Part shown: positions 11,087 to 44,474 of the stretch, piece by piece | Numbering within the stretch: position 1 is the first letter of the stretch | Layout: each line of letters starts with the position of its first letter | DNA from: Planctomycetota bacterium | GTDB lineage: Bacteria; Planctomycetota; UBA8742; JACQVU01; JANLHZ01 | DNA: 64,000 bases | NCBI GenBank assembly: GCA_024653775.1 | Contig: JANLHZ010000293.1 | Location: forward strand, 400 to 64,399 | Direction: 5' to 3' | Position numbers and translations under genes: made by a program | The notes under the pieces: model-generated | Told to the model about the DNA's origin: nothing | Seen by the model: the letters and a program-made list of their open reading frames with translations, nothing else | The model's database searches: none

Positions 11087-11107
11087 TCGGATCCGTCTTC
11101 GTACATT

Positions 11108-11302: not shown

Positions 11303-11333
11303 TGCCTACGATAGTTTATTTTGTTCCGAGGCC

Positions 11334-19406: not shown

Positions 19407-19412
19407 TATATA

Positions 19413-20153: not shown

Positions 20154-20334
20154 GAACGATCCGGATCGAGGTGTCCAGCGCAATTTAGCAGGTTGCCGAC
20201 ATTCTGGCGATAGGGAACAAAATTTCTCCATGGGCGATTTTGCTTGTATTATTGTGATTTTGTTTTAGAATCGTACTTCACAGATATTAGGGAAAATTTG
20301 CCCTGACAGACGCCCCCGCGTTTCTTAGGACCTG

Positions 20335-22479: not shown

Positions 22480-22497
22480 CATTTACGGGAATTATCT

Positions 22498-23424
22498 ATG
22501 TCCAAATCCGGCGTGACTGAAATGATTATGAAGTCGGTCGATAAGCTCGGCAGACTTCCCCCGACGCTCAACAAAGTTATTGAAGTTGTAAACAACGCGA
22601 AGGCGAGTCCCAAGGATCTCGCGCAGGTCATAAAATACGATCCCGTGTTGACCTTCGAGATTCTGAAGCTCATAAACAGCGCGTATTTTTCCATAAGAAA
22701 CGAAATCAAAACGCTTTCACAGGCGATTGTTCTTCTCGGTATGAACACCGTGAAGAATCTTTGCCTTTCGATCGCTCTTGCGCAGAAGCTCAGCGCGGAG
22801 ATGCCTGCGAAAACGAACGGCAAATCGTTCTCGATTTCGTATTTCTGGGAGCACAGCCTCAAGGTTGCGATCGCGTCCCGCCTCATCGCGGCGAAGGCTA
22901 TGAATCCGCCTTCGACGAAGGAGGAGTTTTTTCTCGCGGGGCTGCTTCACGATATGGGGAAGCTAGTGATCTACTCCGTGGTTCCGGACGCGTACCTCAA
23001 TATGCTTCACGAGTCGAAGGAGACCCGGAGTTCGGTTCATCACAGGGAGGGCGAGGAGTTCGGGATTACCCACGCGGAAGTCGGTGCTCAGATCGGCAAG
23101 CGCTGGGATTTCAGCGACGGGTTCATCGAGGCGGTTCTCGGCCACCACAAGGACGAATTCTCAGACGAGCATTTCGCGCAGATTGCGAACTGCGTCAAGG
23201 TCGCGAATCACTACGTCCATGTTTACGACGATCTTCGGGAAAGCGAGAATTCTAACGACGAAGTCGAAAAACACGCCCGCGATCCGCTGCCGGACAGCGT
23301 GTTCGGTAGCATCAAAGCGAATCGGGAGAAGGTCGAGGAAGTCCTCGGCGGCGAGCTTCAAGTCGAATTCGAGCGCGCGCAGGCGTTTCTTTCCACGCTC
23401 AGCGGGCAGTCGAATAAAAACTAG
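22498..23424 (+). CDS. HDOD domain signalling protein.
   Basis: PTLNKVIEVVNNAKASPKDLAQVIKYDPVLTFEILKLINSAYF, LLHDMGKLVI and GHHKDE fit the HDOD domain. 18 nt after the upstream gene. Confidence 0.75.
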   Translation: MSKSGVTEMIMKSVDKLGRLPPTLNKVIEVVNNAKASPKDLAQVIKYDPVLTFEILKLINSAYFSIRNEIKTLSQAIVLLGMNTVKNLCLSIALAQKLSAEMPAKTNGKSFSISYFWEHSLKVAIASRLIAAKAMNPPSTKEEFFLAGLLHDMGKLVIYSVVPDAYLNMLHESKETRSSVHHREGEEFGITHAEVGAQIGKRWDFSDGFIEAVLGHHKDEFSDEHFAQIANCVKVANHYVHVYDDLRESENSNDEVEKHARDPLPDSVFGSIKANREKVEEVLGGELQVEFERAQAFLSTLSGQSNKN

Positions 23425-23444
23425 GACACGCAGGGATTGGTATT

Positions 23445-23792
23445 CGTTCGGTGAGCCACGTTTCTTGCGGATTGAGTACCCACCTTGTCCGTGATCTACA
23501 TTAGTGACGCGGACACCGTCGTGATCAGTTAAAAAACTTTCTGAGTAGAAGTGCTTTTGATGTCTGATTTAAGTTTTGATTTCAACTAAGACTTAGTCAT
23601 AATCTTTTAAGCCGCTTTATTATTATACTAAGTTTTATTATACGCTTATAGCCATCATTTTAAAGCCAATAAAATGTATTCGTTCGATAAACCACGTTGA
23701 TAGAAGCGCATACGAAGGTTTTTGCGCGTGGCATGGTCATCTTGACCGTGAAATCGCGAATGGGACGTCCGTGCCACGTGGATCACCGAACG
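23445..23792. mobile_element. MITE-like element: 314-bp AT-rich non-coding core flanked by 17-bp inverted repeats (CGTTCGGTGAGCCACGT / ACGTGGATCACCGAACG, 16/17), between convergent HDOD and prfB.
   Basis: Inverted repeats read directly at 23445..23461 and 23776..23792. The core is ~30% GC versus ~60% in the flanks. No ORF. Confidence 0.4.
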
Positions 23793-23815
23793 TTCACCGG
23801 GATCGATCCGCGGCC

Positions 23816-24920
23816 TTAATTTTCTTCGAACTTCCAGCGCAGGTATGTTTCGATCAGTTCGTCGATGTCTCCGCCCAGAACTTTGTGCACCGCGGAAGTC
23901 GAATATTCCGTGCGTTCGTCCTTCACGCGGGTTTCCGGGTGAATGAAATAGCTGCGGATTCTCTGTCCGAACCCGGCTTTGCCTTTCGATGCGCGATTCT
24001 CCTTCTGTTTCGCGGCGCGCTCCTCCTCCTCACGCCGGCCAAGCTTCGCGGCGAGGAGCTTGATCGCCTGTGCGCGGTTCTGGTGCTGGCTGCGTTCGTT
24101 CTGGCACGAGACGACGATCCCGGTTGGATTGTGAGTCATCCGCACCGCGCTCGCGGTTTTGTTGACGTGCTGGCCACCGGCGCCGGACGCGCAGAAAATA
24201 TCGATGCGGACGTCGTTCATATCGATTTCGATTTTCGATTCGTCCTCGACCATCGGAATCACGTCGACGCCTGCAAAACTTGTCTGTCTCTTCGCGTCCG
24301 CATTGAACGGCGAAAACCTGACAAGCCTCTGCACTCCAATCTCGCCCTGCAGGTTGCCGTAGGCGAATGGACCCTTCACCGCGAAGGTAACGCTTCGATA
24401 CCCGGCTTCCTCGCCCGGCGCTTCGTCGATGAGTTCGACCTCGTAACCCTTGTTCTTCGCCCACGCGCTGTACATTCGAAGGAGGATTGCGACAAAATCG
24501 CACGCGTCGGTCCCGCCTTCCCCCGCGCTGATGATGACGAAGCAGTCGCCGCGATCGTGTTCGCCTGAGAGCAGCGTCAACAGCTCGAAACTTTTCACCC
24601 TGGTCGCTAGTTTTTGAACGGCATCCGCGAACTCATTCGTCTGATCTTCGTTGTCTTCTTCTTCCGCGAATTCGCGCAGAACCTCGAGATCTTCCGCGTC
24701 GCGCAGAATCCTCTCGAACGGTTCGACAATAGACTTCTCGAACTTCAGCGCGGAGATTACCTTTTTCTGGCGTTCCTTGTCGTCCCAGAACCCGGGTTCG
24801 CCCATCACGTTTTCAAGGCGGGAAATCTCGTCTTTGCGAGAGCCCAGGTCAAAGGGACCCCCTTAGCGCGTCAACTCTCCGCGCCACGTCTTCGTATAGT
24901 TGTCCGAGTTCGTAGTCCAT
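23816..24920 (-). CDS. prfB: Peptide chain release factor 2, with programmed +1 frameshift (site at 24848..24854 on this strand copy).
   Basis: SPF and GGQ motifs (RFSPFNADAKRQTSFAGVDV..., ASGAGGQHVNKT). The upstream short frame MDYELGQLYEDVARRVDALRGSL ends at the canonical AGGGGG-N3-CTT-TGA-C shift site and joins the 330-aa frame. Confidence 0.9.
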
Positions 24921-24996
24921 CGCTGTCTCCTTAATTCGTATATCGCAATCTGCCCTGACGGTTCAATAAAATATCGAACCACAGATCGGCAAGGAT

Positions 24997-25584
24997 TTAT
25001 ACCGATAAAAATTCTGTTTTCAAAATGCCGTACATCTCGATGTCTTCGAGTTTTCCCCAGCGGAACATATGTTTCCTGCGCGAGCCTTCGTGCATCATTC
25101 CGGCTTTCAGAAGAACGCGTCCGGACGCTGGGTTTTTCGACATGTGGTGCGCGTGTACGCGGATCAGCCCTAGCGTCGTGAAGGCGAAGTCGATCACCGC
25201 GCGCGCCGCTTCGGTGCAGTAGCCGTTACCACAGAACGGTTTTCCGATCCAGTAGCCGACCTCCGCCTGATGCTCCTTCTGGATGTCCATCAGTCCTATC
25301 GCTCCAAGAAGCTCGCCCGTTTCTTTGAGGGTGATCGCGAGCGCGACTCCGCTACAGGTATCGAAATCCTTCCGATGAGTCGAAATCCATTCCGCCGCGG
25401 CGCCTTCAGGATAGGGGTGGGGGATGTGTGCGGTCATCTCCGCGATGGCATAATCCCCAGCCAGACGCTGCACGTCCGCCGCGTCGGAAAGTTCGAACGG
25501 GCGGAGGATTAGTCGCGAAGTTTCAAGATTCGGAATCGCCACGGGCAGCCCCATCAATAAATTGGTTTCAAAGTTATGAAACAA
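24997..25584 (-). CDS. GNAT family N-acetyltransferase (RimJ/RimL-like).
   Basis: LRPFELSDAADV..., IGLMDIQKEHQAEVGYWIGKPFCGNGYCTEAARAVIDFAF is typical of the GNAT acetyl-CoA binding core. Confidence 0.75.
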   Translation of the reverse strand: MFHNFETNLLMGLPVAIPNLETSRLILRPFELSDAADVQRLAGDYAIAEMTAHIPHPYPEGAAAEWISTHRKDFDTCSGVALAITLKETGELLGAIGLMDIQKEHQAEVGYWIGKPFCGNGYCTEAARAVIDFAFTTLGLIRVHAHHMSKNPASGRVLLKAGMMHEGSRRKHMFRWGKLEDIEMYGILKTEFLSV

Positions 25585-25673
25585 CCAATTTCGCGAAGGG
25601 AACGAAATCTTTTAATTTTCTGCGAGTTTTCAGTTACGCGACAGATCGCGTCGTTTGCGGTCGCACTCCAGAC

Positions 25674-27758
25674 CTACTGTTTGTAGTGAACGATCGGGAG
25701 TTCTATCCCGCCGCCGGAAGCGAGGTCCATTCCGCTGGCGTCCGCGGATTCGGCCGGCCCGATGTGGCTGTGCCGCGGGTTGACGAGGTTTCGGTGATGG
25801 CCGCCGTCCCAGCGCCAGTTATCCATCGCGGTGCGGATTCCGCCCTGAGCAATATTCTCGCCCACGGTGTTGAACGGATAGCCCTGTCTGCGAATCCTGC
25901 TGCTGAGGTCGCGGGTCTCGGGAGTCTTTCCGTCGTGGCCGAAGAAGTCGTACGCCGCCATCTGTTCGAGGTGGCCGATCATCGCCTGCGTGACCTGGGA
26001 CTGAATCTGCAGCGGCGACATCATAAGCTGCGCGCGATACCAGTTGTTGTATTCGGTCGCGTCGCGCACGGCGCGGGACGCCTCGACCTGCATATTCTTG
26101 TTCAGATCGTTAACCATGTAATGCACGGCCATGAAGAACATGACGCGCTCGTATCCTTCGAGTGCGGGGCCTGGCTCGACGGTCCAATCGACCTCCGCAG
26201 CCGCGTTTTGGCTCGTCTCCGTGGTGCTAACCTGCGCGCCCGTTCTGTACGTTCCCGCGTACCCGAGCGAACTCGCGCCGAGCGGGAAACCGAGGCCCGT
26301 CGGGAGTCCGATCATGTTCCCGCCGCGCTCATTTGGAAGTTGTCTGCGTGGGCTTGACGACGCGCTCGCCCTTCTCGGCGCAGGCGACTCGGCACCGGCG
26401 CCCGACGCGGAATTCGATCCCGCGGTTCCGGCCTGCGCTCCGGCGTTTCCGCGCGAAGTCGAGGTCGAAGCCGCGGCTCCGGAGTTCGAACGTCCGGAAT
26501 TGTTCGCTGGCGTGCCCCAGTCGTCATCATTATTCGTGTTCCGCCCGGCGTTATTGCTGCCGGAGTTCGAAGCGTTTCCGCGCGAGTTCGCGCCCGAGTT
26601 CGAATTTCCCCGCGGCGTGGTGCGCTCGGGATAATCGCTCTCGCGCTCCGGATAGTCGCTGCTTTCGGGATAGTCGGAGCCGCCGGTGCCGCCGCCGAGT
26701 CCGTAAGGATCTCCGCCGAGTCCGCGCATTCCGGGGAGTCCGAGGTCGTCGCCGGTTCCGCCCGGTCCGAGAAGCTCTTCGTCGGATTCTGGCAGATCGC
26801 CGAGGAATCCGCGGTCAGCGACCCAGTCTCCTGCTCCGGATGGACGCGTTCCCTCGGAGTCGCTGTAGTCTTCCATTTCCTGCCAGAACGGATTGTTGCG
26901 GGCGCCGTAGCTTCCTCCTTCCATTCCGGGCATTCCTGGGAGGTTCTGGTCGGCTCCGGGGAGCGGGTTTCCCATGGGATCGACTCCGCCTCCGCCCGCG
27001 CCGCCGTTCTGTGCGCCTTGTCCGACGCCTGCGCCCGAGTTCGAGCCGGCGGACGATCCTGACGCGGAGAAGCCGTGGTAGATCAGGAGCGCCTTGCGCC
27101 AGTCTTTCAGCTTCAGGAACATCATTCCCTGAAGGAATCTCGACATTTCCGGCTGTGCGCGGGGAGTTTCGCGGGAATGATCCTTCAGCACTTTTTCGAA
27201 TTCCGCGAGCAACTTGCGCGACGCGATGATCTTGTCCGCGAACTCCTGCACCGCCTCCCGCGAGGTCTGGTTGTACGCGCGAAGATCGCCTTCGAAGCTG
27301 CGTTTGAAATCCCGGAAGATGTTGTCGAGGGCTGTGAACTGCTCCGCGACGAAATCGTAGCCGATGTAAGGGCCGCTGACGGGGCCGTTCGGATTCGGGA
27401 ACGCGACGGTGTCGAAAATCGTGTCGAGGGTTTTCTTCGACTGCGCTTCCCAGGCTTCGCGAATGGCTTTCGTGGCCTCGATATTAGCCTTGTAGTTTCC
27501 GAAGAGCGCTTCGAACTTCTCGATGTTGTCCTCCAGATCGCCCGCCTGACGCTGGTACTCCTGCGAAATGGTGTCGAGCGCGAGCGGTTTTTCCGTATCG
27601 CTGAGCTTATCGATCGCGGAATACGCCTCGGCGCGAGCGGTCGAACTATCGCTCCGCACCGCGCGTCTGATGTCGCTGAGGCTCATCTCTTCGCTCATCG
27701 CGGAAATGGCGAAAAGTCCGAGAATTCCGATCGAGGCTAAAAATGCTCTGAATTTCAT
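25674..27758 (-). CDS. Secreted CAP/SCP (PR-1-like) domain protein with a long G/S/N-rich disordered linker.
   Basis: Signal peptide MKFRAFLASIGILGLFAISAMS. C-terminal GHDGKTPETR...GENIAQG...GGHHRNLVNPRHSHIG is CAP-like. Confidence 0.6.
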   Translation of the reverse strand: MKFRAFLASIGILGLFAISAMSEEMSLSDIRRAVRSDSSTARAEAYSAIDKLSDTEKPLALDTISQEYQRQAGDLEDNIEKFEALFGNYKANIEATKAIREAWEAQSKKTLDTIFDTVAFPNPNGPVSGPYIGYDFVAEQFTALDNIFRDFKRSFEGDLRAYNQTSREAVQEFADKIIASRKLLAEFEKVLKDHSRETPRAQPEMSRFLQGMMFLKLKDWRKALLIYHGFSASGSSAGSNSGAGVGQGAQNGGAGGGGVDPMGNPLPGADQNLPGMPGMEGGSYGARNNPFWQEMEDYSDSEGTRPSGAGDWVADRGFLGDLPESDEELLGPGGTGDDLGLPGMRGLGGDPYGLGGGTGGSDYPESSDYPERESDYPERTTPRGNSNSGANSRGNASNSGSNNAGRNTNNDDDWGTPANNSGRSNSGAAASTSTSRGNAGAQAGTAGSNSASGAGAESPAPRRASASSSPRRQLPNERGGNMIGLPTGLGFPLGASSLGYAGTYRTGAQVSTTETSQNAAAEVDWTVEPGPALEGYERVMFFMAVHYMVNDLNKNMQVEASRAVRDATEYNNWYRAQLMMSPLQIQSQVTQAMIGHLEQMAAYDFFGHDGKTPETRDLSSRIRRQGYPFNTVGENIAQGGIRTAMDNWRWDGGHHRNLVNPRHSHIGPAESADASGMDLASGGGIELPIVHYKQ

Positions 27759-27792
27759 GGTGGCTCCGGAAAACTTGAAATGTGGTCGCTGG

Positions 27793-27820
27793 TTGTTAGT
27801 TGTTAGTTGTTAGTTGTTAG
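27793..27820. repeat. (TTGTTAG)x4, i.e. (CTAACAA)x4 on the coding strand. Heptanucleotide tandem repeat 35 nt upstream of the CAP-protein start codon.
   Basis: Read directly: ggTTGTTAGTTGTTAGTTGTTAGTTGTTAGag. Confidence 0.95.
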
Positions 27821-27868
27821 AGTCGGTTTATCAATTCTTCGAGTCGAATCATCAAGGCTCTGGATTCG

Positions 27869-28831
27869 TCAATCCGATCGTCCACTATAATTGTTTACCC
27901 GTACGAGTTCAAAAGTCTCTTTGAAGTGAATCGTAGGGGGCATACCCGTGGACCTTTCCTTCATATGGTCGAAAATCAGGCTCACCTTTTCGAACGCGCC
28001 TATGCGGTCATCGAAGACGGCTTCGCCGGTTCCGGTGACGATCTGGCGCCAATAATCGCTTTCGCCAATGGTTCCACCCTCGCCCGAAAGCTGCGCGACC
28101 ATCGAAAAACGATGGAATTTCCGCTCATCGACCTCGCTCGCGCTCTCGTACGTCCAGACGATCTTCCCCTTCGGCGTCCAGGGATCAGAATTCCCGACGT
28201 GAGGAAAATCGCAGATGAGTTCCCATGACTTTCCGATTTTGTCCAGCAGCCGGTCTTCTTTCGGGAGCCTTGTGCACATTTCAAGAAACCACTGCTCCGA
28301 AGCAAACCTCCTTGTCAGGGAATCGTAGTCCTCGTCCGAGACCATCAGTCCGTTTTCCGGGGTCCATTCGTAACTGTAATCGAGTTTCAGTTCCGGACCG
28401 CCACTGATCTCGATGCCGTCCATCGAGGCGTCCACGAAGAACCGCAGTTTGTGAAGGTTTCCCGCGCGGCTCAGGAACACCTTCTTTTTTGATGATGGGA
28501 GCTGGCTGCCCATTTCGCCGCGAAGGGCGCCGAAGCCGCCCATATCCTGGGCGACCCGCGTCATCAGGTATTCGATTTCGAGTCCATCGGGGACGTCGAA
28601 GGTCAGTGATGGCAGCTTCTGACTTTTCGAGGAATAGAAATACAGTGCCACGCCTATGAGGACGAGCAGAACTCCAATCGAAACGAGGCTCTTGCTGCCG
28701 AGATTCTTATGCACTGGTGGAAGTCTCAATCCCAGGGATTCCGGAAAACGCGAACGCGCGTACCAAGCTATAAACGAGTCCCGGAGTAAAAAAGTTCGCC
28801 CGACGAAATTATGACGTCCGAGAACGGCCAC
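27869..28831 (-). CDS. Hypothetical membrane-anchored protein (single N-terminal TM), function unknown.
   Basis: TM segment LVSIGVLLVLIGVALYFY. The start may lie internal to the ORF. No family recognised. Confidence 0.45.
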   Translation of the reverse strand: MAVLGRHNFVGRTFLLRDSFIAWYARSRFPESLGLRLPPVHKNLGSKSLVSIGVLLVLIGVALYFYSSKSQKLPSLTFDVPDGLEIEYLMTRVAQDMGGFGALRGEMGSQLPSSKKKVFLSRAGNLHKLRFFVDASMDGIEISGGPELKLDYSYEWTPENGLMVSDEDYDSLTRRFASEQWFLEMCTRLPKEDRLLDKIGKSWELICDFPHVGNSDPWTPKGKIVWTYESASEVDERKFHRFSMVAQLSGEGGTIGESDYWRQIVTGTGEAVFDDRIGAFEKVSLIFDHMKERSTGMPPTIHFKETFELVRVNNYSGRSD

Positions 28832-28954
28832 TGGTTCCAGGATTCCAAGATATTCGATTTTGTTCTTTCCAGCGTGAGAACAATGAAACTATCATAATGT
28901 TCCGTATATCCCGATTTGCTTCCGCAATCCCACCAAAATTCGAAAGGCCGATAG

Positions 28955-30661
28955 ATGAGAGAATGGCGTCAGGATTGGAGAGACATCTTCCACACCTTCC
29001 GGATTGCAATCGACCCTCGAAAACTTCTCCTTACATTCGCTGGAGTCGCGTTCACCATAACGGTTCTGATAGTCTGGTGGTGGGTGTGGGGGAACCTCGA
29101 AGCGACCAGGTCCGTGCTTCAGGACGCGGACGGCACGATGGCGGACGAGGAAGGCGTAGCGAACGTGGTGCGGGACGGCGATGACATCTGGTCGCCGCTT
29201 TCATGGGTTCTCGAAAAAGGACTGTTCTACGAACCCGATGGCGGCGAGCCTGCTCCGGTGGTGAAACAGTTCAGTCTCTCGCGTTCTTCGCTCGGGCTTG
29301 TGAAGCAATTCTTCAACGATTTCGTCTTTAGCCCGCCGACGCTGTTCTACACGTTTTTGCTGATCGTGTTCAAGGTCGTCGCGTGGGTCGTATGGGCGCT
29401 GCTTGCGGGCGCGATAAGCAGGATCACCGCGATCGAAATCGCGCGGGACGAACGAATCGACATCAAGGAGGCGCTACAGTATTCATGGAACAAGCTATCG
29501 AGCCTTTTCTGGAGTCCGCTATTCCCGTTAGTCGCGGTGGGCGTTCTCGCGGCGTGCATCTTCCTCTGGGGACTCGTCGGCGCGATTCCGTGGATCGGGC
29601 CGCTCGTCACCGCCATTACGTCGCCGCTCGCGATATTCACCGCGGTGCTGATGGCGTTCGGCATAATCGGATTCATCGTAGGCTGGCCTCTGATGGGACC
29701 GGCGATCTGCGCGGAAGGAACCGACCTTTTCGACGGAGTCTCGAAGGCGTATAGCTACGTCTACTCGAAACCGTGGCATCTCATTTTCTATCGCTACGTT
29801 CTCGGTGCGTTCTACTGCGTGATCACGACGATCTTCGTGTGGGTGTTCGCGCTGGTTTTCCTCTGGTGCATGTTCGCGCCCGCCACCGCGGCGTGGAGCT
29901 GGGCGTCGGACGATCCGCAGATCTACAAGTTCTACAGATTCATGAACATCGATAAAAATCTCGTCCAGGCGGACAGATGCATCGACAGCACGCTCGACAA
30001 CTGCGTTGTCGCGGGAGTGAACCCGTTCGCTCCGCAGATCGGGGACGAAAAGTTCGAGCTGAAAAACGTCATCGAGGTTTCCGCTCCGTTCAAGGAAGCG
30101 GGCGTCGACGAAAACGCCCCAAGACCCGTGCTCTTCGGCGACGAGGAGAAAGACCTCGATTTCTGGATGTCGCTCTTCACGCTCGGCGTCGGGACGCTGC
30201 TCGTCTTCGCTCTCGGCGTGGCGCTGATTTTCCCGATCAACTTCCTGATCACTCTCGAAACGATCATCTACTTCCTGATGCGCAGGAAGGTCGACGGCGT
30301 AAGGATGAGCGAGGTATATCTCGAAGAAGACGAGGAGCAGTTCGACGCCTTCGAGGCGCTTGGGCTGAAGCCGGTGACGGTTCCGCCTTTCGGCTCGGGA
30401 GCCGGAGCCGGAATAGCGACGACTTTCGACCTTGCGGAACCCTCTAAGGCCGCGGCCGCGCCTTCGGAAGCTCCTCCGACAGAGGCGGATGAGCCGGAAG
30501 CCGCAGAGACGACTCCATCCGGCAGGAAGAAGGCGGCGCCTTCGAAACGCTCCGGCCGCAAAGCCGCGCCAAAGAAGACTTCCGCCCGTAAATCCACGGC
30601 AAAGAAGAAAGCTCCTTCCAAGCGGAGCACGCGTAAGGATCTCGATTCCGAGCGGGACTGA
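28955..30661 (+). CDS. Polytopic membrane protein with a lysine/alanine/proline-rich (histone H1/AlgP-like) C-terminal tail.
   Basis: At least 8 hydrophobic helices. C-terminus KKAAPSKRSGRKAAPKKTSARKSTAKKKAPSKR. Confidence 0.55.
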   Translation: MREWRQDWRDIFHTFRIAIDPRKLLLTFAGVAFTITVLIVWWWVWGNLEATRSVLQDADGTMADEEGVANVVRDGDDIWSPLSWVLEKGLFYEPDGGEPAPVVKQFSLSRSSLGLVKQFFNDFVFSPPTLFYTFLLIVFKVVAWVVWALLAGAISRITAIEIARDERIDIKEALQYSWNKLSSLFWSPLFPLVAVGVLAACIFLWGLVGAIPWIGPLVTAITSPLAIFTAVLMAFGIIGFIVGWPLMGPAICAEGTDLFDGVSKAYSYVYSKPWHLIFYRYVLGAFYCVITTIFVWVFALVFLWCMFAPATAAWSWASDDPQIYKFYRFMNIDKNLVQADRCIDSTLDNCVVAGVNPFAPQIGDEKFELKNVIEVSAPFKEAGVDENAPRPVLFGDEEKDLDFWMSLFTLGVGTLLVFALGVALIFPINFLITLETIIYFLMRRKVDGVRMSEVYLEEDEEQFDAFEALGLKPVTVPPFGSGAGAGIATTFDLAEPSKAAAAPSEAPPTEADEPEAAETTPSGRKKAAPSKRSGRKAAPKKTSARKSTAKKKAPSKRSTRKDLDSERD

Positions 30662-30662
30662 A

Positions 30663-31871
30663 TTACAAAAGTTGTGAAAGAAATGTACTGGCTGGAACTT
30701 TGATCGGACTACCTGGATTTTCAAAGCAGTTTGCGTCAACGTACTCGTCATCGATGGAAACCTGAAAAGCGAATGGCGCTCTAATCTGATTTTGAAAGTA
30801 TCCAAGACTCGGACTCAAGGGTTCGTCGGACATCTTCACCTCGATTATAAACCAGGGTTCTTCGTCGCGGATTACGACGAAATCTACTTCGCGTTTTTCC
30901 TTGTCGCGAAGATAACAGAGTTGGAACTTCCCGAAACCAAGGTCCGTCCAGTTCTCCACCGCCTTCAGCAGGTGGCACGCGACAAAGGTCTCCGCTTTCT
31001 GCCCGGCGTCAGTCACCTCCGACCAGTCGCGCAGGAACCACTTTGGCTCCTTTCTAAGCGAACGGGCGACATTTTTGAACCACGGACGGACGAAGAATCC
31101 GAAATGCAGCGAGCACAGCGACTCCGTCCAGTTTTTCGTGGTTACGTCCGAGGTTCGCAGTTCCCTGGCGAGATTGCTGTAAACAAGTTGACATGAGGAA
31201 CGCGTGGAAAGAATCCGAGCCAGCACTTCTATCTGGTCTAGCTGCGCTATGCCCGTCAGGTCGCGGATGTCCTCTCGAATAATCTGTTCCCTTCGGAGCG
31301 ACGTCCATCGTCTGGTGAAGCGATCGTCGCGCTTTAGAAATGGCTCCGGGAAGCCGCCGTGGCGCCAGAGCGAGTCGAATTCCGTCTGTTTCGCTTTTTG
31401 GGGAGGGCGGACTATCGTTTTCGGATCCGGAATGCTCTGGCGGATCGTTTCCGCAAGAGTGAATGGATGCATGCGGTAATAGAAGTATCGGCCCATCAGG
31501 CTGTCGCCGCCTCGTTTATAGACATCCAGCCTGCTGCTTCCTGTCACGATAGTTCTGGCGCGCTCCGAATAAACGTCGAAGAATCCTTTCAGGAAGCTCT
31601 TCCAGCGCGGGAACTTATGGAGTTCATCGAATACAATCACCGGAGCTTTCGACTTCATTCGATCGATCCCGTAACTCGCGGCGATTGCCCGCGGACCGCT
31701 CATTATTTTCTCGCGATCGTCGACGTCATCCCAGTTTACATAGGCGTCCGACTGCATTCGGCACGTTGTTGTTTTACCAACTTGCCTGGGCCCGCTTACG
31801 AACGCCATCTGTCTGTACAACCCGAGGTGTTCTTCGAGTATTGCGTCGTATATTCGTTTTGAGCCGTCCAT
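30663..31871 (-). CDS. AAA+ ATPase of the AAA_14/DUF4143 family.
   Basis: N-terminal MAFVSGPRQVGKTT P-loop in the context typical of DUF4143 ATP-binding proteins. Stop codon 1 nt from the stop of the convergent upstream gene. Confidence 0.7.
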   Translation of the reverse strand: MDGSKRIYDAILEEHLGLYRQMAFVSGPRQVGKTTTCRMQSDAYVNWDDVDDREKIMSGPRAIAASYGIDRMKSKAPVIVFDELHKFPRWKSFLKGFFDVYSERARTIVTGSSRLDVYKRGGDSLMGRYFYYRMHPFTLAETIRQSIPDPKTIVRPPQKAKQTEFDSLWRHGGFPEPFLKRDDRFTRRWTSLRREQIIREDIRDLTGIAQLDQIEVLARILSTRSSCQLVYSNLARELRTSDVTTKNWTESLCSLHFGFFVRPWFKNVARSLRKEPKWFLRDWSEVTDAGQKAETFVACHLLKAVENWTDLGFGKFQLCYLRDKEKREVDFVVIRDEEPWFIIEVKMSDEPLSPSLGYFQNQIRAPFAFQVSIDDEYVDANCFENPGSPIKVPASTFLSQLL

Positions 31872-32009
31872 TCTGGGACATAATATATATATGACTTCGA
31901 ATTAGTCCAGACCATTTCGAATCATACTTCGAAATAGTCATGACTATTTCGAAGTATGATTCGAAATGGTCTGGACTAATTCGAAGTCATATATATATTA
32001 TGTCCCAGA
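31872..32009. other. Palindrome axis: 138-bp AT-rich region between the two divergent AAA-ATPase gene copies. Nested hairpins: atttcgaa-tcatac-ttcgaaat at 31914..31935, mirrored at 31946..31967.
   Basis: Direct reading: ...ttcgaattagtccagaccatttcgaatcatacttcgaaatagtca|tgactatttcgaagtatgattcgaaatggtctggactaattcgaa... The TTCGAA motif occurs three times per side, and a TATATATAT run sits at 31882..31892. Confidence 0.9.
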
Positions 32010-33218
32010 ATGGACGGCTCAAAACGAATATACGACGCAATACTCGAAGAACACCTCGGGTTGTACAGACAGATGGCGTTCGTAAGCGGGCCCAGGCAAG
32101 TTGGTAAAACAACAACGTGCCGAATGCAGTCGGACGCCTATGTAAACTGGGATGACGTCGACGATCGCGAGAAAATAATGAGCGGTCCGCGGGCAATCGC
32201 CGCGAGTTACGGGATCGATCGAATGAAGTCGAAAGCTCCGGTGATTGTATTCGATGAACTCCATAAGTTCCCGCGCTGGAAGAGCTTCCTGAAAGGATTC
32301 TTCGACGTTTATTCGGAGCGCGCCAGAACTATCGTGACAGGAAGCAGCAGGCTGGATGTCTATAAACGAGGCGGCGACAGCCTGATGGGCCGATACTTCT
32401 ATTACCGCATGCATCCATTCACTCTTGCGGAAACGATCCGCCAGAGCATTCCGGATCCGAAAACGATAGTCCGCCCTCCCCAAAAAGCGAAACAGACGGA
32501 ATTCGACTCGCTCTGGCGCCACGGCGGCTTCCCGGAGCCATTTCTAAAGCGCGACGATCGCTTCACCAGACGATGGACGTCGCTCCGAAGGGAACAGATT
32601 ATTCGAGAGGACATCCGCGACCTGACGGGCATAGCGCAGCTAGACCAGATAGAAGTGCTGGCTCGGATTCTTTCCACGCGTTCCTCATGTCAACTTGTTT
32701 ACAGCAATCTCGCCAGGGAACTGCGAACCTCGGACGTAACCACGAAAAACTGGACGGAGTCGCTGTGCTCGCTGCATTTCGGATTCTTCGTCCGTCCGTG
32801 GTTCAAAAATGTCGCCCGTTCGCTTAGAAAGGAGCCAAAGTGGTTCCTGCGCGACTGGTCGGAGGTGACTGACGCCGGGCAGAAAGCGGAGACCTTTGTC
32901 GCGTGCCACCTGCTGAAGGCGGTGGAGAACTGGACGGACCTTGGTTTCGGGAAGTTCCAACTCTGTTATCTTCGCGACAAGGAAAAACGCGAAGTAGATT
33001 TCGTCGTAATCCGCGACGAAGAACCCTGGTTTATAATCGAGGTGAAGATGTCCGACGAACCCTTGAGTCCGAGTCTTGGATACTTTCAAAATCAGATTAG
33101 AGCGCCATTCGCTTTTCAGGTTTCCATCGATGACGAGTACGTTGACGCAAACTGCTTTGAAAATCCAGGTAGTCCGATCAAAGTTCCAGCCAGTACATTT
33201 CTTTCACAACTTTTGTAA
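32010..33218 (+). CDS. AAA+ ATPase (AAA_14/DUF4143), mirror copy.
   Basis: Identical 402-aa translation to 30663..31871. Confidence 0.7.
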   Translation: MDGSKRIYDAILEEHLGLYRQMAFVSGPRQVGKTTTCRMQSDAYVNWDDVDDREKIMSGPRAIAASYGIDRMKSKAPVIVFDELHKFPRWKSFLKGFFDVYSERARTIVTGSSRLDVYKRGGDSLMGRYFYYRMHPFTLAETIRQSIPDPKTIVRPPQKAKQTEFDSLWRHGGFPEPFLKRDDRFTRRWTSLRREQIIREDIRDLTGIAQLDQIEVLARILSTRSSCQLVYSNLARELRTSDVTTKNWTESLCSLHFGFFVRPWFKNVARSLRKEPKWFLRDWSEVTDAGQKAETFVACHLLKAVENWTDLGFGKFQLCYLRDKEKREVDFVVIRDEEPWFIIEVKMSDEPLSPSLGYFQNQIRAPFAFQVSIDDEYVDANCFENPGSPIKVPASTFLSQLL

Positions 33219-33219
33219 T

Positions 33220-34926
33220 TCAGTCCCGCTCGGAATCGAGATCCTTACGCGTGCTCCGCTTGGAAGGAGCTTTCTTCTTTGCCGTGGATTTACGGGCGGA
33301 AGTCTTCTTTGGCGCGGCTTTGCGGCCGGAGCGTTTCGAAGGCGCCGCCTTCTTCCTGCCGGATGGAGTCGTCTCTGCGGCTTCCGGCTCATCCGCCTCT
33401 GTCGGAGGAGCTTCCGAAGGCGCGGCCGCGGCCTTAGAGGGTTCCGCAAGGTCGAAAGTCGTCGCTATTCCGGCTCCGGCTCCCGAGCCGAAAGGCGGAA
33501 CCGTCACCGGCTTCAGCCCAAGCGCCTCGAAGGCGTCGAACTGCTCCTCGTCTTCTTCGAGATATACCTCGCTCATCCTTACGCCGTCGACCTTCCTGCG
33601 CATCAGGAAGTAGATGATCGTTTCGAGAGTGATCAGGAAGTTGATCGGGAAAATCAGCGCCACGCCGAGAGCGAAGACGAGCAGCGTCCCGACGCCGAGC
33701 GTGAAGAGCGACATCCAGAAATCGAGGTCTTTCTCCTCGTCGCCGAAGAGCACGGGTCTTGGGGCGTTTTCGTCGACGCCCGCTTCCTTGAACGGAGCGG
33801 AAACCTCGATGACGTTTTTCAGCTCGAACTTTTCGTCCCCGATCTGCGGAGCGAACGGGTTCACTCCCGCGACAACGCAGTTGTCGAGCGTGCTGTCGAT
33901 GCATCTGTCCGCCTGGACGAGATTTTTATCGATGTTCATGAATCTGTAGAACTTGTAGATCTGCGGATCGTCCGACGCCCAGCTCCACGCCGCGGTGGCG
34001 GGCGCGAACATGCACCAGAGGAAAACCAGCGCGAACACCCACACGAAGATCGTCGTGATCACGCAGTAGAACGCACCGAGAACGTAGCGATAGAAAATGA
34101 GATGCCACGGTTTCGAGTAGACGTAGCTATACGCCTTCGAGACTCCGTCGAAAAGGTCGGTTCCTTCCGCGCAGATCGCCGGTCCCATCAGAGGCCAGCC
34201 TACGATGAATCCGATTATGCCGAACGCCATCAGCACCGCGGTGAATATCGCGAGCGGCGACGTAATGGCGGTGACGAGCGGCCCGATCCACGGAATCGCG
34301 CCGACGAGTCCCCAGAGGAAGATGCACGCCGCGAGAACGCCCACCGCGACTAACGGGAATAGCGGACTCCAGAAAAGGCTCGATAGCTTGTTCCATGAAT
34401 ACTGTAGCGCCTCCTTGATGTCGATTCGTTCGTCCCGCGCGATTTCGATCGCGGTGATCCTGCTTATCGCGCCCGCAAGCAGCGCCCATACGACCCACGC
34501 GACGACCTTGAACACGATCAGCAAAAACGTGTAGAACAGCGTCGGCGGGCTAAAGACGAAATCGTTGAAGAATTGCTTCACAAGCCCGAGCGAAGAACGC
34601 GAGAGACTGAACTGTTTCACCACCGGAGCAGGCTCGCCGCCATCGGGTTCGTAGAACAGTCCTTTTTCGAGAACCCATGAAAGCGGCGACCAGATGTCAT
34701 CGCCGTCCCGCACCACGTTCGCTACGCCTTCCTCGTCCGCCATCGTGCCGTCCGCGTCCTGAAGCACGGACCTGGTCGCTTCGAGGTTCCCCCACACCCA
34801 CCACCAGACTATCAGAACCGTTATGGTGAACGCGACTCCAGCGAATGTAAGGAGAAGTTTTCGAGGGTCGATTGCAATCCGGAAGGTGTGGAAGATGTCT
34901 CTCCAATCCTGACGCCATTCTCTCAT
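33220..34926 (-). CDS. Polytopic membrane protein with KAAP-rich tail, mirror copy.
   Basis: Identical to 28955..30661. Confidence 0.55.
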   Translation of the reverse strand: MREWRQDWRDIFHTFRIAIDPRKLLLTFAGVAFTITVLIVWWWVWGNLEATRSVLQDADGTMADEEGVANVVRDGDDIWSPLSWVLEKGLFYEPDGGEPAPVVKQFSLSRSSLGLVKQFFNDFVFSPPTLFYTFLLIVFKVVAWVVWALLAGAISRITAIEIARDERIDIKEALQYSWNKLSSLFWSPLFPLVAVGVLAACIFLWGLVGAIPWIGPLVTAITSPLAIFTAVLMAFGIIGFIVGWPLMGPAICAEGTDLFDGVSKAYSYVYSKPWHLIFYRYVLGAFYCVITTIFVWVFALVFLWCMFAPATAAWSWASDDPQIYKFYRFMNIDKNLVQADRCIDSTLDNCVVAGVNPFAPQIGDEKFELKNVIEVSAPFKEAGVDENAPRPVLFGDEEKDLDFWMSLFTLGVGTLLVFALGVALIFPINFLITLETIIYFLMRRKVDGVRMSEVYLEEDEEQFDAFEALGLKPVTVPPFGSGAGAGIATTFDLAEPSKAAAAPSEAPPTEADEPEAAETTPSGRKKAAPSKRSGRKAAPKKTSARKSTAKKKAPSKRSTRKDLDSERD

Positions 34927-35049
34927 CTATCGGCCTTTCGAATTTTGGTGGGATTGCGGAAGCAAATCGGGATATACGGAACATTATGATAGTTTCATTG
35001 TTCTCACGCTGGAAAGAACAAAATCGAATATCTTGGAATCCTGGAACCA

Positions 35050-36012
35050 GTGGCCGTTCTCGGACGTCATAATTTCGTCGGGCGAACTTTTTTACTCCGG
35101 GACTCGTTTATAGCTTGGTACGCGCGTTCGCGTTTTCCGGAATCCCTGGGATTGAGACTTCCACCAGTGCATAAGAATCTCGGCAGCAAGAGCCTCGTTT
35201 CGATTGGAGTTCTGCTCGTCCTCATAGGCGTGGCACTGTATTTCTATTCCTCGAAAAGTCAGAAGCTGCCATCACTGACCTTCGACGTCCCCGATGGACT
35301 CGAAATCGAATACCTGATGACGCGGGTCGCCCAGGATATGGGCGGCTTCGGCGCCCTTCGCGGCGAAATGGGCAGCCAGCTCCCATCATCAAAAAAGAAG
35401 GTGTTCCTGAGCCGCGCGGGAAACCTTCACAAACTGCGGTTCTTCGTGGACGCCTCGATGGACGGCATCGAGATCAGTGGCGGTCCGGAACTGAAACTCG
35501 ATTACAGTTACGAATGGACCCCGGAAAACGGACTGATGGTCTCGGACGAGGACTACGATTCCCTGACAAGGAGGTTTGCTTCGGAGCAGTGGTTTCTTGA
35601 AATGTGCACAAGGCTCCCGAAAGAAGACCGGCTGCTGGACAAAATCGGAAAGTCATGGGAACTCATCTGCGATTTTCCTCACGTCGGGAATTCTGATCCC
35701 TGGACGCCGAAGGGGAAGATCGTCTGGACGTACGAGAGCGCGAGCGAGGTCGATGAGCGGAAATTCCATCGTTTTTCGATGGTCGCGCAGCTTTCGGGCG
35801 AGGGTGGAACCATTGGCGAAAGCGATTATTGGCGCCAGATCGTCACCGGAACCGGCGAAGCCGTCTTCGATGACCGCATAGGCGCGTTCGAAAAGGTGAG
35901 CCTGATTTTCGACCATATGAAGGAAAGGTCCACGGGTATGCCCCCTACGATTCACTTCAAAGAGACTTTTGAACTCGTACGGGTAAACAATTATAGTGGA
36001 CGATCGGATTGA
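35050..36012 (+). CDS. Hypothetical membrane-anchored protein, mirror copy.
   Basis: Identical to 27869..28831. Confidence 0.45.
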   Translation: MAVLGRHNFVGRTFLLRDSFIAWYARSRFPESLGLRLPPVHKNLGSKSLVSIGVLLVLIGVALYFYSSKSQKLPSLTFDVPDGLEIEYLMTRVAQDMGGFGALRGEMGSQLPSSKKKVFLSRAGNLHKLRFFVDASMDGIEISGGPELKLDYSYEWTPENGLMVSDEDYDSLTRRFASEQWFLEMCTRLPKEDRLLDKIGKSWELICDFPHVGNSDPWTPKGKIVWTYESASEVDERKFHRFSMVAQLSGEGGTIGESDYWRQIVTGTGEAVFDDRIGAFEKVSLIFDHMKERSTGMPPTIHFKETFELVRVNNYSGRSD

Positions 36013-36122
36013 CGAATCCAGAGCCTTGATGATTCGACTCGAAGAATTGATAAACCGACTCTAACAACTAACAACTAACAACTAACAACCAGCGACCACA
36101 TTTCAAGTTTTCCGGAGCCACC

Positions 36123-38207
36123 ATGAAATTCAGAGCATTTTTAGCCTCGATCGGAATTCTCGGACTTTTCGCCATTTCCGCGATGAGCGAAGAGATGAGC
36201 CTCAGCGACATCAGACGCGCGGTGCGGAGCGATAGTTCGACCGCTCGCGCCGAGGCGTATTCCGCGATCGATAAGCTCAGCGATACGGAAAAACCGCTCG
36301 CGCTCGACACCATTTCGCAGGAGTACCAGCGTCAGGCGGGCGATCTGGAGGACAACATCGAGAAGTTCGAAGCGCTCTTCGGAAACTACAAGGCTAATAT
36401 CGAGGCCACGAAAGCCATTCGCGAAGCCTGGGAAGCGCAGTCGAAGAAAACCCTCGACACGATTTTCGACACCGTCGCGTTCCCGAATCCGAACGGCCCC
36501 GTCAGCGGCCCTTACATCGGCTACGATTTCGTCGCGGAGCAGTTCACAGCCCTCGACAACATCTTCCGGGATTTCAAACGCAGCTTCGAAGGCGATCTTC
36601 GCGCGTACAACCAGACCTCGCGGGAGGCGGTGCAGGAGTTCGCGGACAAGATCATCGCGTCGCGCAAGTTGCTCGCGGAATTCGAAAAAGTGCTGAAGGA
36701 TCATTCCCGCGAAACTCCCCGCGCACAGCCGGAAATGTCGAGATTCCTTCAGGGAATGATGTTCCTGAAGCTGAAAGACTGGCGCAAGGCGCTCCTGATC
36801 TACCACGGCTTCTCCGCGTCAGGATCGTCCGCCGGCTCGAACTCGGGCGCAGGCGTCGGACAAGGCGCACAGAACGGCGGCGCGGGCGGAGGCGGAGTCG
36901 ATCCCATGGGAAACCCGCTCCCCGGAGCCGACCAGAACCTCCCAGGAATGCCCGGAATGGAAGGAGGAAGCTACGGCGCCCGCAACAATCCGTTCTGGCA
37001 GGAAATGGAAGACTACAGCGACTCCGAGGGAACGCGTCCATCCGGAGCAGGAGACTGGGTCGCTGACCGCGGATTCCTCGGCGATCTGCCAGAATCCGAC
37101 GAAGAGCTTCTCGGACCGGGCGGAACCGGCGACGACCTCGGACTCCCCGGAATGCGCGGACTCGGCGGAGATCCTTACGGACTCGGCGGCGGCACCGGCG
37201 GCTCCGACTATCCCGAAAGCAGCGACTATCCGGAGCGCGAGAGCGATTATCCCGAGCGCACCACGCCGCGGGGAAATTCGAACTCGGGCGCGAACTCGCG
37301 CGGAAACGCTTCGAACTCCGGCAGCAATAACGCCGGGCGGAACACGAATAATGATGACGACTGGGGCACGCCAGCGAACAATTCCGGACGTTCGAACTCC
37401 GGAGCCGCGGCTTCGACCTCGACTTCGCGCGGAAACGCCGGAGCGCAGGCCGGAACCGCGGGATCGAATTCCGCGTCGGGCGCCGGTGCCGAGTCGCCTG
37501 CGCCGAGAAGGGCGAGCGCGTCGTCAAGCCCACGCAGACAACTTCCAAATGAGCGCGGCGGGAACATGATCGGACTCCCGACGGGCCTCGGTTTCCCGCT
37601 CGGCGCGAGTTCGCTCGGGTACGCGGGAACGTACAGAACGGGCGCGCAGGTTAGCACCACGGAGACGAGCCAAAACGCGGCTGCGGAGGTCGATTGGACC
37701 GTCGAGCCAGGCCCCGCACTCGAAGGATACGAGCGCGTCATGTTCTTCATGGCCGTGCATTACATGGTTAACGATCTGAACAAGAATATGCAGGTCGAGG
37801 CGTCCCGCGCCGTGCGCGACGCGACCGAATACAACAACTGGTATCGCGCGCAGCTTATGATGTCGCCGCTGCAGATTCAGTCCCAGGTCACGCAGGCGAT
37901 GATCGGCCACCTCGAACAGATGGCGGCGTACGACTTCTTCGGCCACGACGGAAAGACTCCCGAGACCCGCGACCTCAGCAGCAGGATTCGCAGACAGGGC
38001 TATCCGTTCAACACCGTGGGCGAGAATATTGCTCAGGGCGGAATCCGCACCGCGATGGATAACTGGCGCTGGGACGGCGGCCATCACCGAAACCTCGTCA
38101 ACCCGCGGCACAGCCACATCGGGCCGGCCGAATCCGCGGACGCCAGCGGAATGGACCTCGCTTCCGGCGGCGGGATAGAACTCCCGATCGTTCACTACAA
38201 ACAGTAG
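36123..38207 (+). CDS. Secreted CAP/SCP domain protein, mirror copy (preceded by (CTAACAA)4 at 36061..36088).
   Basis: Identical to 25674..27758. Confidence 0.6.
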   Translation: MKFRAFLASIGILGLFAISAMSEEMSLSDIRRAVRSDSSTARAEAYSAIDKLSDTEKPLALDTISQEYQRQAGDLEDNIEKFEALFGNYKANIEATKAIREAWEAQSKKTLDTIFDTVAFPNPNGPVSGPYIGYDFVAEQFTALDNIFRDFKRSFEGDLRAYNQTSREAVQEFADKIIASRKLLAEFEKVLKDHSRETPRAQPEMSRFLQGMMFLKLKDWRKALLIYHGFSASGSSAGSNSGAGVGQGAQNGGAGGGGVDPMGNPLPGADQNLPGMPGMEGGSYGARNNPFWQEMEDYSDSEGTRPSGAGDWVADRGFLGDLPESDEELLGPGGTGDDLGLPGMRGLGGDPYGLGGGTGGSDYPESSDYPERESDYPERTTPRGNSNSGANSRGNASNSGSNNAGRNTNNDDDWGTPANNSGRSNSGAAASTSTSRGNAGAQAGTAGSNSASGAGAESPAPRRASASSSPRRQLPNERGGNMIGLPTGLGFPLGASSLGYAGTYRTGAQVSTTETSQNAAAEVDWTVEPGPALEGYERVMFFMAVHYMVNDLNKNMQVEASRAVRDATEYNNWYRAQLMMSPLQIQSQVTQAMIGHLEQMAAYDFFGHDGKTPETRDLSSRIRRQGYPFNTVGENIAQGGIRTAMDNWRWDGGHHRNLVNPRHSHIGPAESADASGMDLASGGGIELPIVHYKQ

Positions 38208-38296
38208 GTCTGGAGTGCGACCGCAAACGACGCGATCTGTCGCGTAACTGAAAACTCGCAGAAAATTAAAAGATTTCGTTCCCTTCGCGAAATTGG

Positions 38297-38884
38297 TTGT
38301 TTCATAACTTTGAAACCAATTTATTGATGGGGCTGCCCGTGGCGATTCCGAATCTTGAAACTTCGCGACTAATCCTCCGCCCGTTCGAACTTTCCGACGC
38401 GGCGGACGTGCAGCGTCTGGCTGGGGATTATGCCATCGCGGAGATGACCGCACACATCCCCCACCCCTATCCTGAAGGCGCCGCGGCGGAATGGATTTCG
38501 ACTCATCGGAAGGATTTCGATACCTGTAGCGGAGTCGCGCTCGCGATCACCCTCAAAGAAACGGGCGAGCTTCTTGGAGCGATAGGACTGATGGACATCC
38601 AGAAGGAGCATCAGGCGGAGGTCGGCTACTGGATCGGAAAACCGTTCTGTGGTAACGGCTACTGCACCGAAGCGGCGCGCGCGGTGATCGACTTCGCCTT
38701 CACGACGCTAGGGCTGATCCGCGTACACGCGCACCACATGTCGAAAAACCCAGCGTCCGGACGCGTTCTTCTGAAAGCCGGAATGATGCACGAAGGCTCG
38801 CGCAGGAAACATATGTTCCGCTGGGGAAAACTCGAAGACATCGAGATGTACGGCATTTTGAAAACAGAATTTTTATCGGTATAA
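38297..38884 (+). CDS. GNAT N-acetyltransferase, mirror copy.
   Basis: Identical to 24997..25584. Confidence 0.75.
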   Translation: MFHNFETNLLMGLPVAIPNLETSRLILRPFELSDAADVQRLAGDYAIAEMTAHIPHPYPEGAAAEWISTHRKDFDTCSGVALAITLKETGELLGAIGLMDIQKEHQAEVGYWIGKPFCGNGYCTEAARAVIDFAFTTLGLIRVHAHHMSKNPASGRVLLKAGMMHEGSRRKHMFRWGKLEDIEMYGILKTEFLSV

Positions 38885-38960
38885 ATCCTTGCCGATCTGT
38901 GGTTCGATATTTTATTGAACCGTCAGGGCAGATTGCGATATACGAATTAAGGAGACAGCG

Positions 38961-40065
38961 ATGGACTACGAACTCGGACAACTATACGAAGACGTGGCGC
39001 GGAGAGTTGACGCGCTAAGGGGGTCCCTTTGACCTGGGCTCTCGCAAAGACGAGATTTCCCGCCTTGAAAACGTGATGGGCGAACCCGGGTTCTGGGACG
39101 ACAAGGAACGCCAGAAAAAGGTAATCTCCGCGCTGAAGTTCGAGAAGTCTATTGTCGAACCGTTCGAGAGGATTCTGCGCGACGCGGAAGATCTCGAGGT
39201 TCTGCGCGAATTCGCGGAAGAAGAAGACAACGAAGATCAGACGAATGAGTTCGCGGATGCCGTTCAAAAACTAGCGACCAGGGTGAAAAGTTTCGAGCTG
39301 TTGACGCTGCTCTCAGGCGAACACGATCGCGGCGACTGCTTCGTCATCATCAGCGCGGGGGAAGGCGGGACCGACGCGTGCGATTTTGTCGCAATCCTCC
39401 TTCGAATGTACAGCGCGTGGGCGAAGAACAAGGGTTACGAGGTCGAACTCATCGACGAAGCGCCGGGCGAGGAAGCCGGGTATCGAAGCGTTACCTTCGC
39501 GGTGAAGGGTCCATTCGCCTACGGCAACCTGCAGGGCGAGATTGGAGTGCAGAGGCTTGTCAGGTTTTCGCCGTTCAATGCGGACGCGAAGAGACAGACA
39601 AGTTTTGCAGGCGTCGACGTGATTCCGATGGTCGAGGACGAATCGAAAATCGAAATCGATATGAACGACGTCCGCATCGATATTTTCTGCGCGTCCGGCG
39701 CCGGTGGCCAGCACGTCAACAAAACCGCGAGCGCGGTGCGGATGACTCACAATCCAACCGGGATCGTCGTCTCGTGCCAGAACGAACGCAGCCAGCACCA
39801 GAACCGCGCACAGGCGATCAAGCTCCTCGCCGCGAAGCTTGGCCGGCGTGAGGAGGAGGAGCGCGCCGCGAAACAGAAGGAGAATCGCGCATCGAAAGGC
39901 AAAGCCGGGTTCGGACAGAGAATCCGCAGCTATTTCATTCACCCGGAAACCCGCGTGAAGGACGAACGCACGGAATATTCGACTTCCGCGGTGCACAAAG
40001 TTCTGGGCGGAGACATCGACGAACTGATCGAAACATACCTGCGCTGGAAGTTCGAAGAAAATTAA
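38961..40065 (+). CDS. prfB: Release factor 2 with +1 programmed frameshift at CTT TGA C (39027..39033), mirror copy.
   Basis: aaggag RBS, ATG at 38961, short frame to the TGA at 39030..39032, then the 330-aa frame starting at 39073. Identical to the left copy. Confidence 0.9.
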
Positions 40066-40088
40066 GGCCGCGGATCGATCCCGGTGAA

Positions 40089-40436
40089 CGTTCGGTGATC
40101 CACGTGGCACGGACGTCCCATTCGCGATTTCACGGTCAAGATGACCATGCCACGCGCAAAAACCTTCGTATGCGCTTCTATCAACGTGGTTTATCGAACG
40201 AATACATTTTATTGGCTTTAAAATGATGGCTATAAGCGTATAATAAAACTTAGTATAATAATAAAGCGGCTTAAAAGATTATGACTAAGTCTTAGTTGAA
40301 ATCAAAACTTAAATCAGACATCAAAAGCACTTCTACTCAGAAAGTTTTTTAACTGATCACGACGGTGTCCGCGTCACTAATGTAGATCACGGACAAGGTG
40401 GGTACTCAATCCGCAAGAAACGTGGCTCACCGAACG
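40089..40436. mobile_element. MITE-like AT-rich element with 17-bp inverted repeats, mirror copy.
   Basis: Mirror of 23445..23792. Confidence 0.4.
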
Positions 40437-40456
40437 AATACCAATCCCTGCGTGTC

Positions 40457-41383: not shown

Positions 41384-41401
41384 AGATAATTCCCGTAAAT
41401 G

Positions 41402-44468: not shown

Positions 44469-44474
44469 TATATA

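Follow-up and report, generated by a model that had tools for sequence, protein, structure and literature searches.

The deposited contig studied here is one giant palindrome, and we consider it very likely that this palindrome is an artefactual fold-back that nucleated at a natural promoter dyad. The analysed stretch, hereafter the window, comprises 64,000 nt of a 64,678 nt contig of a Planctomycetota MAG. Its global axis is almost certainly not a biological feature. The local hairpins and TTCGAA words around that axis, on the other hand, are one mirrored copy of a real promoter/operator palindrome of an ordinary type. The case also explains the position of the fold-back, which falls on a natural perfect or near-perfect promoter palindrome.

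Symmetry of the contig

When the window was compared with itself, positions 1-31940 and 31941-63880 were 100% complementary with 0 mismatches and a spacer of 0 nt. Thus, the global symmetry that the original prediction had described exists, as a perfect reverse complement with no spacer. The axis falls on 31940..31941 (..AAATAGTC-AT-GACTATTT..), at most about 340 nt from the contig midpoint, and the two arms of the contig differ by at most 798 nt. Given an axis near the midpoint and perfect arms, the entire contig must be one palindrome: the arms are identical, the axis is central and the symmetry spans the full length.

The right arm (31941..63880) is ordinary chromosomal DNA of the Planctomycetota MAG. 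The left arm (1..31940) is the exact reverse complement of 31941-63880 and carries the mirrored protein accessions; we take it to be an artefactual mirror copy, except perhaps for about 31910-31940. The deposited proteins (locus tag NUW37_17885) mirror each other in the consecutive accessions MCR4318215/216/217/218. Both the AAA protein next to the axis and its 568-aa neighbour, whose relatives reach only 36% identity or less, have a single record source, this same contig, with two accessions apiece. The contig itself is absent from the genome, metagenome and viral contig collections that were scanned, which yielded only homologues of 65% identity or less. Independent information is therefore held in one arm only, the other side being its mirror image. 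In its deposited form the contig doubles every gene in this way, which inflates gene counts and invites misreading as a telomere or a giant palindrome.

Palindromes of this type are known from assemblies. In de Bruijn graphs, an inverted loop arises at a k-mer whose (k-1)-suffix equals its own reverse complement; SPAdes and MEGAHIT pass these loops without a break and produce palindromic unitigs, and ABySS splits them (PMC9528984). Whole-contig palindromes have been described as assembly errors in 81 contigs obtained with SPAdes from M. bovis isolates (PMC9455707) and also occur in single-cell (SAG) assemblies (bioRxiv 10.1101/2023.06.06.543983). MDA, in turn, generates physical fold-back molecules and palindromic reads (PMC13265396). 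The contig resembles these known assembler and MDA palindromes in its X' + X structure, its mirrored identical genes, its midpoint axis on a self-reverse-complementary word and the annotation and deposition of both gene copies. It differs from them in that the nucleating palindrome is an identifiable promoter dyad, conserved throughout a gene family. The identical sequence would also arise from a covalently closed hairpin end or from the replicated junction of a hairpin. Since a perfect inverted repeat is expected from a telomere junction and from an assembly fold-back alike, the symmetry does not discriminate between the two.

A promoter dyad ahead of PDC-S01 genes

The gene that adjoins the axis (32010..33218, plus strand) encodes an ATPase-nuclease with AAA_14 and DUF4143 (PD-(D/E)XK) domains according to Pfam, and PADLOC assigns it to PDC-S01 (E = 5.9e-49). 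Its mirror copy (30663..31871, minus strand) is identical in sequence and was deposited as a second protein accession. The protein contains the Walker A motif GPRQVGKTT and the nuclease motif D..EVK. DUF4143 is a member of the PD-(D/E)XK nuclease superfamily (PMC3424549). PDC-S01, an ATPase fused to PD-(D/E)XK, reportedly ranks fourth in frequency among the candidate defence systems of prokaryotes, is often transferred and is still unvalidated (PMC12988326), and a representative gave no protection when tested in E. coli (bioRxiv 10.1101/2024.09.26.614923). A sequence search of the PDB with the window's AAA/DUF4143 protein returned no relative. Its AlphaFold model is poor (pLDDT 61), and Foldseek matched it to generic AAA+ folds only. 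The predicted helices 211-223, 231-238 and 242-256 are compatible with a (winged) helix-turn-helix, but in a model of pLDDT 61 they are not evidence of one.

Homologues of the AAA protein are 33-67% identical to it, share no synteny with the window and come from Planctomycetota, Verrucomicrobiota, Gammaproteobacteria, Acidobacteriota, Latescibacterota, Bdellovibrionota and one archaeon. Despite these scattered hosts, the non-coding DNA before AAA_14/DUF4143 genes is conserved. It forms a cassette whose units, each 30 nt long, have the half-sites GACyATTT / AAATrGTC (in looser form GACyAwww / wwwTrGTC) at their borders. Two units face each other over a 2-nt spacer (..GTC-NN-GAC..) and so make up a dyad of 62 bp. 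We scanned the 80 nt upstream of 151 homologues for this dyad, with a score out of 30. Of these, 62 reached at least 20/30, with the background at 14.2 +/- 1.5; the best homologue scored 28/30 and none was perfect (30/30).

When 40 elements were aligned without gaps, 79% of the cells were paired, compared with 32-42% when the partner was slid; picking the 40 loci by dyad score biases the paired percentage upwards but leaves the compensatory pattern unaffected. Compensatory double changes were found in 28 of the 30 pairs, and the covariation score was 0.49 versus 0.20 for shuffled alignments. Self-pairing inside each unit was weaker (64%). The arms thus vary in sequence between lineages yet remain complementary. 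This co-variation of the inner arms suggests selection on their base-pairing.

The units occur in two main layouts. In the two-unit layout, found in most close homologues (for example L161 and L163), the dyad centre itself is the -35 element (GTC-TT-GAC gives TTGAC), the -10 (GATAAT or TAAAAT) lies inside the second unit, and the ATG follows a few nt later. In the three-unit layout (L104, L106, L034, L036, L110, L107, L109, L112, L027 and L029), an upstream dyad P0|P1 that scores 16-26/30 is followed by a third, non-complementary unit with the promoter (TTGACA-17-TATTAT in L104, TTGACA-17-TAGTAT in L034) and then by the ATG. A further locus, L005, has at least 3.5 units. Separately, L103 contains an unrelated palindrome at about 8520-8610, some 1.4 kb upstream of the AAA gene, with 44-nt arms (up to 2 mismatches) and a 4-nt spacer; it is the only long palindrome found among the 165 homologous loci.

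The cassette is probably a self-contained, portable promoter of the sigma-70 type that travels with the mobile nuclease gene, and we infer that the dyad acts as an operator-like or hairpin-capable control element. Its four to six alternating half-sites resemble sites for a dimeric or tetrameric regulator. A candidate regulator would be the gene's own product, which would provide autoregulation of a potentially toxic nuclease after transfer. Base-pairing of the arms may be selected in addition, either as a hairpin or cruciform or as an RNA hairpin that would form in read-through transcripts and serve as an insulator.

C-box operators, the sites of the controller proteins of restriction-modification systems, are dyad-symmetric, overlap promoters and go along with leaderless transcripts. 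The PDC-S01 cassette is similar to them in its four alternating half-sites, which overlap or abut the -35, in a start codon very near the -10, and in accompanying a potentially toxic nuclease gene. It is dissimilar in that no separate regulator gene was seen. Unlike simple protein half-sites, moreover, its inner 12 nt co-vary so that the arms stay complementary. No published description of a PDC-S01 promoter dyad turned up in our literature searches. The gain is modest: a conserved, self-contained promoter cassette of PDC-S01 genes with a long dyad and co-varying arms, present in many phyla. The cassette offers a handle on how PDC-S01 nuclease genes stay in check after horizontal transfer, and it is worth noting that the dyad of this family can derail an assembly.

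The axis within the window's promoter

The two mirrored start codons, at 31871 (minus strand) and 32010 (plus strand), exactly delimit the centre of the window, 31872-32009. This centre had been proposed to be the AT-rich 5' region of the AAA/DUF4143 gene, and the homologous promoter cassettes, together with the -35 and -10 elements present here, bear this out. The centre is indeed AT-rich (33.3% GC); the flanks, estimated at about 60%, measured 54.3% in the adjacent 1 kb. The other proposed features were found as well: local hairpins of the form ATTTCGAA-TCATAC-TTCGAAAT at 31914-31935 and, mirrored, at 31946-31967, a TA run at 31884-31892 plus its mirror, and three TTCGAA words per side (31896, 31916 and 31928; 31948, 31960 and 31980). 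From its frequency in the rest of the arm, 0.084 copies would be expected in 69 nt, where three are present (P about 9e-5). However, TTCGAA is not a motif of its own. It is the local version of the variable inner segment of the dyad, which reads TACGA/TCGTA, CGATG/CATCG, CTGCAG and so on elsewhere in the family.

Structure prediction folded all 138 nt into a single perfect hairpin of -75.9 kcal/mol, but this value is uninformative because it is a trivial outcome of the global symmetry. Rfam yielded no matching family, only sub-threshold models of plant and animal miRNA precursors; we dismissed these, as such models match any long perfect hairpin. Unit P1 (31942..31971, plus strand), on one side of the axis, corresponds to the nested hairpin of the original prediction and reads GACTATTTCGAA-GTATGA-TTCGAAATGGTC, with GACTATTT and AAATGGTC as its outer half-sites. 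The hairpin combines a 12-bp stem, in which one pair is mismatched, with a loop of 6 nt. Folded as single-stranded DNA, it reaches -10 kcal/mol (z = -3.4), a value equalled in 1 of 200 shuffles, and a scan of the 32-kb arm found P1 to be the sole such unit.

P1 is followed by a promoter-bearing third unit, P2* (31972..32005, plus strand), which begins with a -35-like TGGACT (31972-31977) and ends in ATTATGTCC. Its -10-like hexamer is TATATT (ending at 31999) or TATTAT (31996-32001) and includes the TA run. The window promoter can thus be written as TGGACT-18-TATTAT. Only 8-9 nt separate the -10 from the ATG, which makes a leaderless or almost leaderless mRNA probable. The mirror of the promoter unit (31876..31909, minus strand) belongs to the mirrored arm and is probably absent from the organism.

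The window therefore shows the elements of the family cassette: an adjoining AAA_14 + DUF4143 gene, 30-nt units, 2-nt spacers (unit junctions GGTC-TG-GACT and AGTC-AT-GACT) and a promoter in the last unit. L104, L034 and the window (31971 to 32010) all have 38 nt between the point where the right dyad arm ends and the ATG. Between P1 and P2* the dyad score is 14/30, equal to background and short of the 18/30 asked of two complementary units, and the same junction scores 8-12/30 in the three-unit class. Taken together, the 38-nt spacing and the lack of a dyad at P1|P2* place the expected centre of the natural dyad on 31940|31941, that is, on the giant axis. The predicted natural dyad of 62 bp (31910..31971) would consist of P0 (31910-31939), the AT spacer and P1 (31942-31971), with the axis in its 2-nt spacer and the GTC-NN-GAC geometry of the family's dyad centres. 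P1 is certainly natural. Homology suggests a natural P0 at 31910-31939 also, although the sequence shown there is the mirror of P1; the score of 30/30 for P0|P1 in the window results solely from the way in which the contig is mirrored.

Two units are present in the closest homologues (65-67% identity), and the three-unit reading of the window thus relies on geometry and dyad scores, not on phylogenetic proximity. We had also considered an axis lying 1 nt outside a two-unit element, and dropped it in favour of the three-unit reading after the dyad geometry of the homologues had been established. An artefact at a coincidental position would correspond to such a locus: P1 and P2* would be its two units, P0 would not exist, and the junction would happen to fall 1 nt outside P1. 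The two-unit layout of the closest homologues, L161 and L163 (67% identity), speaks for it, as do the weak dyads (15-16/30) seen in about 10% of the loci with two units. Against it, a random fold-back would match the canonical GTC-NN-GAC geometry with its exact 2-nt spacer by chance at only about one position in tens to thousands. Furthermore, a zero-spacer junction needs a natural palindrome, for graph loops and for snap-back priming alike. We regard a coincidental position as very unlikely.

The axis instead probably sits on the centre of the family dyad, in agreement with the proposal that the window's centre is the kind of site at which fold-back, snap-back or template switching occurs. 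By homology, it lies on a natural short palindrome able to form an inverted loop or a snap-back primer. The real chromosome would read Y-P0|P1-promoter-gene and the contig reads X' + X. At P0|P1, the assembly would have turned into its own reverse complement rather than into Y, the genuine upstream sequence. The turn could have arisen in the assembly graph or from fold-back molecules of the library or amplification. P0|P1 suits all of these routes, because each of them needs a perfect or near-perfect natural palindrome. As a counterpoint, at large k the graph route would call for a natural palindrome of unusual perfection, and the maximum among the homologues is 28/30. On balance the fold-back is very probably non-biological.

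Two other technical origins were rejected. Snap-back on the P1 hairpin would have put the axis into the P1 loop (31954-31959) with a 6-nt asymmetric spacer, which was not seen. A missed SMRTbell or nanopore adapter is not needed either, as the centre is fully accounted for by homology to natural promoters. Nothing adapter-like was apparent at the centre.

The homologous loci show how such a dyad is embedded in its natural context. In the three-unit loci, complementarity is 7-10/10 in the innermost block and falls to chance (0-3/10) beyond 30 nt from the centre, compared with 10/10 in every block of the window. In all 165 homologous loci, on long contigs and on several complete, Mb-sized chromosomes of circular size, the symmetry ends with the 30-nt arms, and the dyad lies in the interior, flanked by unique DNA to the left and right. 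Independent assemblies from JGI, ENA and Logan reproduced the unrelated upstream genes (L161/L162, L163-165), and a fold-back at the dyad was found in 0 of the 165 loci. The original prediction had named as its own refutation that homologous loci continue into unrelated DNA, and this is what they do: the element occurs once and is followed by unique upstream sequence. By the terms of that prediction, the axis would be no more than the point of a chimeric fold-back, with no telomere-like function.

Could the palindrome nevertheless have arisen in the living cell? The natural dyad would then have been the site of a break, which left a hairpin-capped end that was either replicated as an inverted duplication or sequenced directly. 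Such a break could stem from cruciform cleavage or from fold-back of resected DNA, conceivably with the participation of the adjacent PD-(D/E)XK nuclease. The axis lies exactly at the centre of a hairpin-capable dyad, the junction has zero spacer and no adapter-like insert, and the neighbouring gene does encode a PD-(D/E)XK nuclease fused to an AAA+ ATPase (PMC3424549). However, two perfect 32-kb arms that double essential genes and make up exactly one contig fit an assembler path better, and none of the other 165 loci with the element shows such a fold-back. We therefore judge an origin in vivo to be unlikely. It is more doubtful still that the dyad is a structure-forming (cruciform or hairpin) element that yielded hairpin-capped or fold-back DNA in this organism, possibly by way of the adjacent PD-(D/E)XK nuclease. 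If true, it would link a common candidate defence gene to palindrome-directed DNA breakage.

Telomere reading and gene content of the arms

The original prediction had also likened the centre to the targets of telomere resolvases. The organism would then have a linear chromosome that depends on a resolvase, and the axis would be either its replicated telomere junction or a hairpin telomere across which sequencing had continued. Like rTel and the hairpin telomeres of Borrelia, Agrobacterium and N15-type phages, the window has a perfect inverted repeat without spacer, as a replicated telomere junction would look (PMC9111995), and an AT-rich centre, here with a CATG core. The resemblance ends there. 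Among the ORFs of the 32-kb arm, Pfam and NCBIfam searches found neither a telomere resolvase nor a tyrosine recombinase or transposase. A mobile gene's promoter cassette forms the central element, which in the 165 other loci lies inside chromosomes and long contigs and is not terminal there, and the flanks consist of housekeeping genes. No relationship to tel sites or to linear phages and plasmids emerged: blastn with the 138 bp returned no phage hit (50,697 records) and, from plasmids, a single match of 40 nt at chance level (E = 4). Moreover, the palindrome fills its contig symmetrically, as assembler artefacts do. The likeness to a telomere-resolvase target was thus not upheld, and we consider a telomeric origin extremely unlikely; a fold-back artefact at the promoter dyad accounts better for the symmetric contig.

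The right arm encodes, besides the AAA/DUF4143 protein, prfB, pgi, a HerA-like gene, folE, mdh, an ABC/HlyD pair, an SLT gene, tRNA-Met and others, a content that by annotation is housekeeping and ordinary for a chromosome. A synteny comparison of 12 arm proteins with 160 homologous loci revealed no match beyond the AAA gene, so that relatives give no pointer to the natural upstream neighbour Y.

Some further observations concern individual genes of the arms. prfB (38961-40065, mirror 23816-24920) has the canonical +1 frameshift site CTT TGA C at 39027, with a Shine-Dalgarno-like AGGGGG ahead of it; its N-terminal 23 codons (MDYELGQLYEDVARRVDALRGSL) are out of frame with the main ORF (39073-40065). 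At 46319-52547 (mirror 11334-17562), the gene of a 775-aa HerA/FtsK-like ATPase with PADLOC matches to mad8/HerA (E about 1e-17) is divergent from the gene of a 1268-aa VWA-domain protein. These two may act as a pair in DNA translocation or in a defence-like role. A HEAT-repeat gene and pgi share a stretch of 41 nt with 73% similarity (42909-42949 and 44876-44916). Its mirrors (20932-20972 and 18965-19005) led to its listing as inverted repeats I2/I3 only through the mirrored arms, and the similarity is probably due to chance. Finally, the outer ends of the arms (1-2000 and 62000-64000) have 41% GC, compared with 55-60% elsewhere. A DUF3238 protein and small unknown ORFs are encoded here, the contig end lies within about 700 nt, and these low-GC ends may represent an island.
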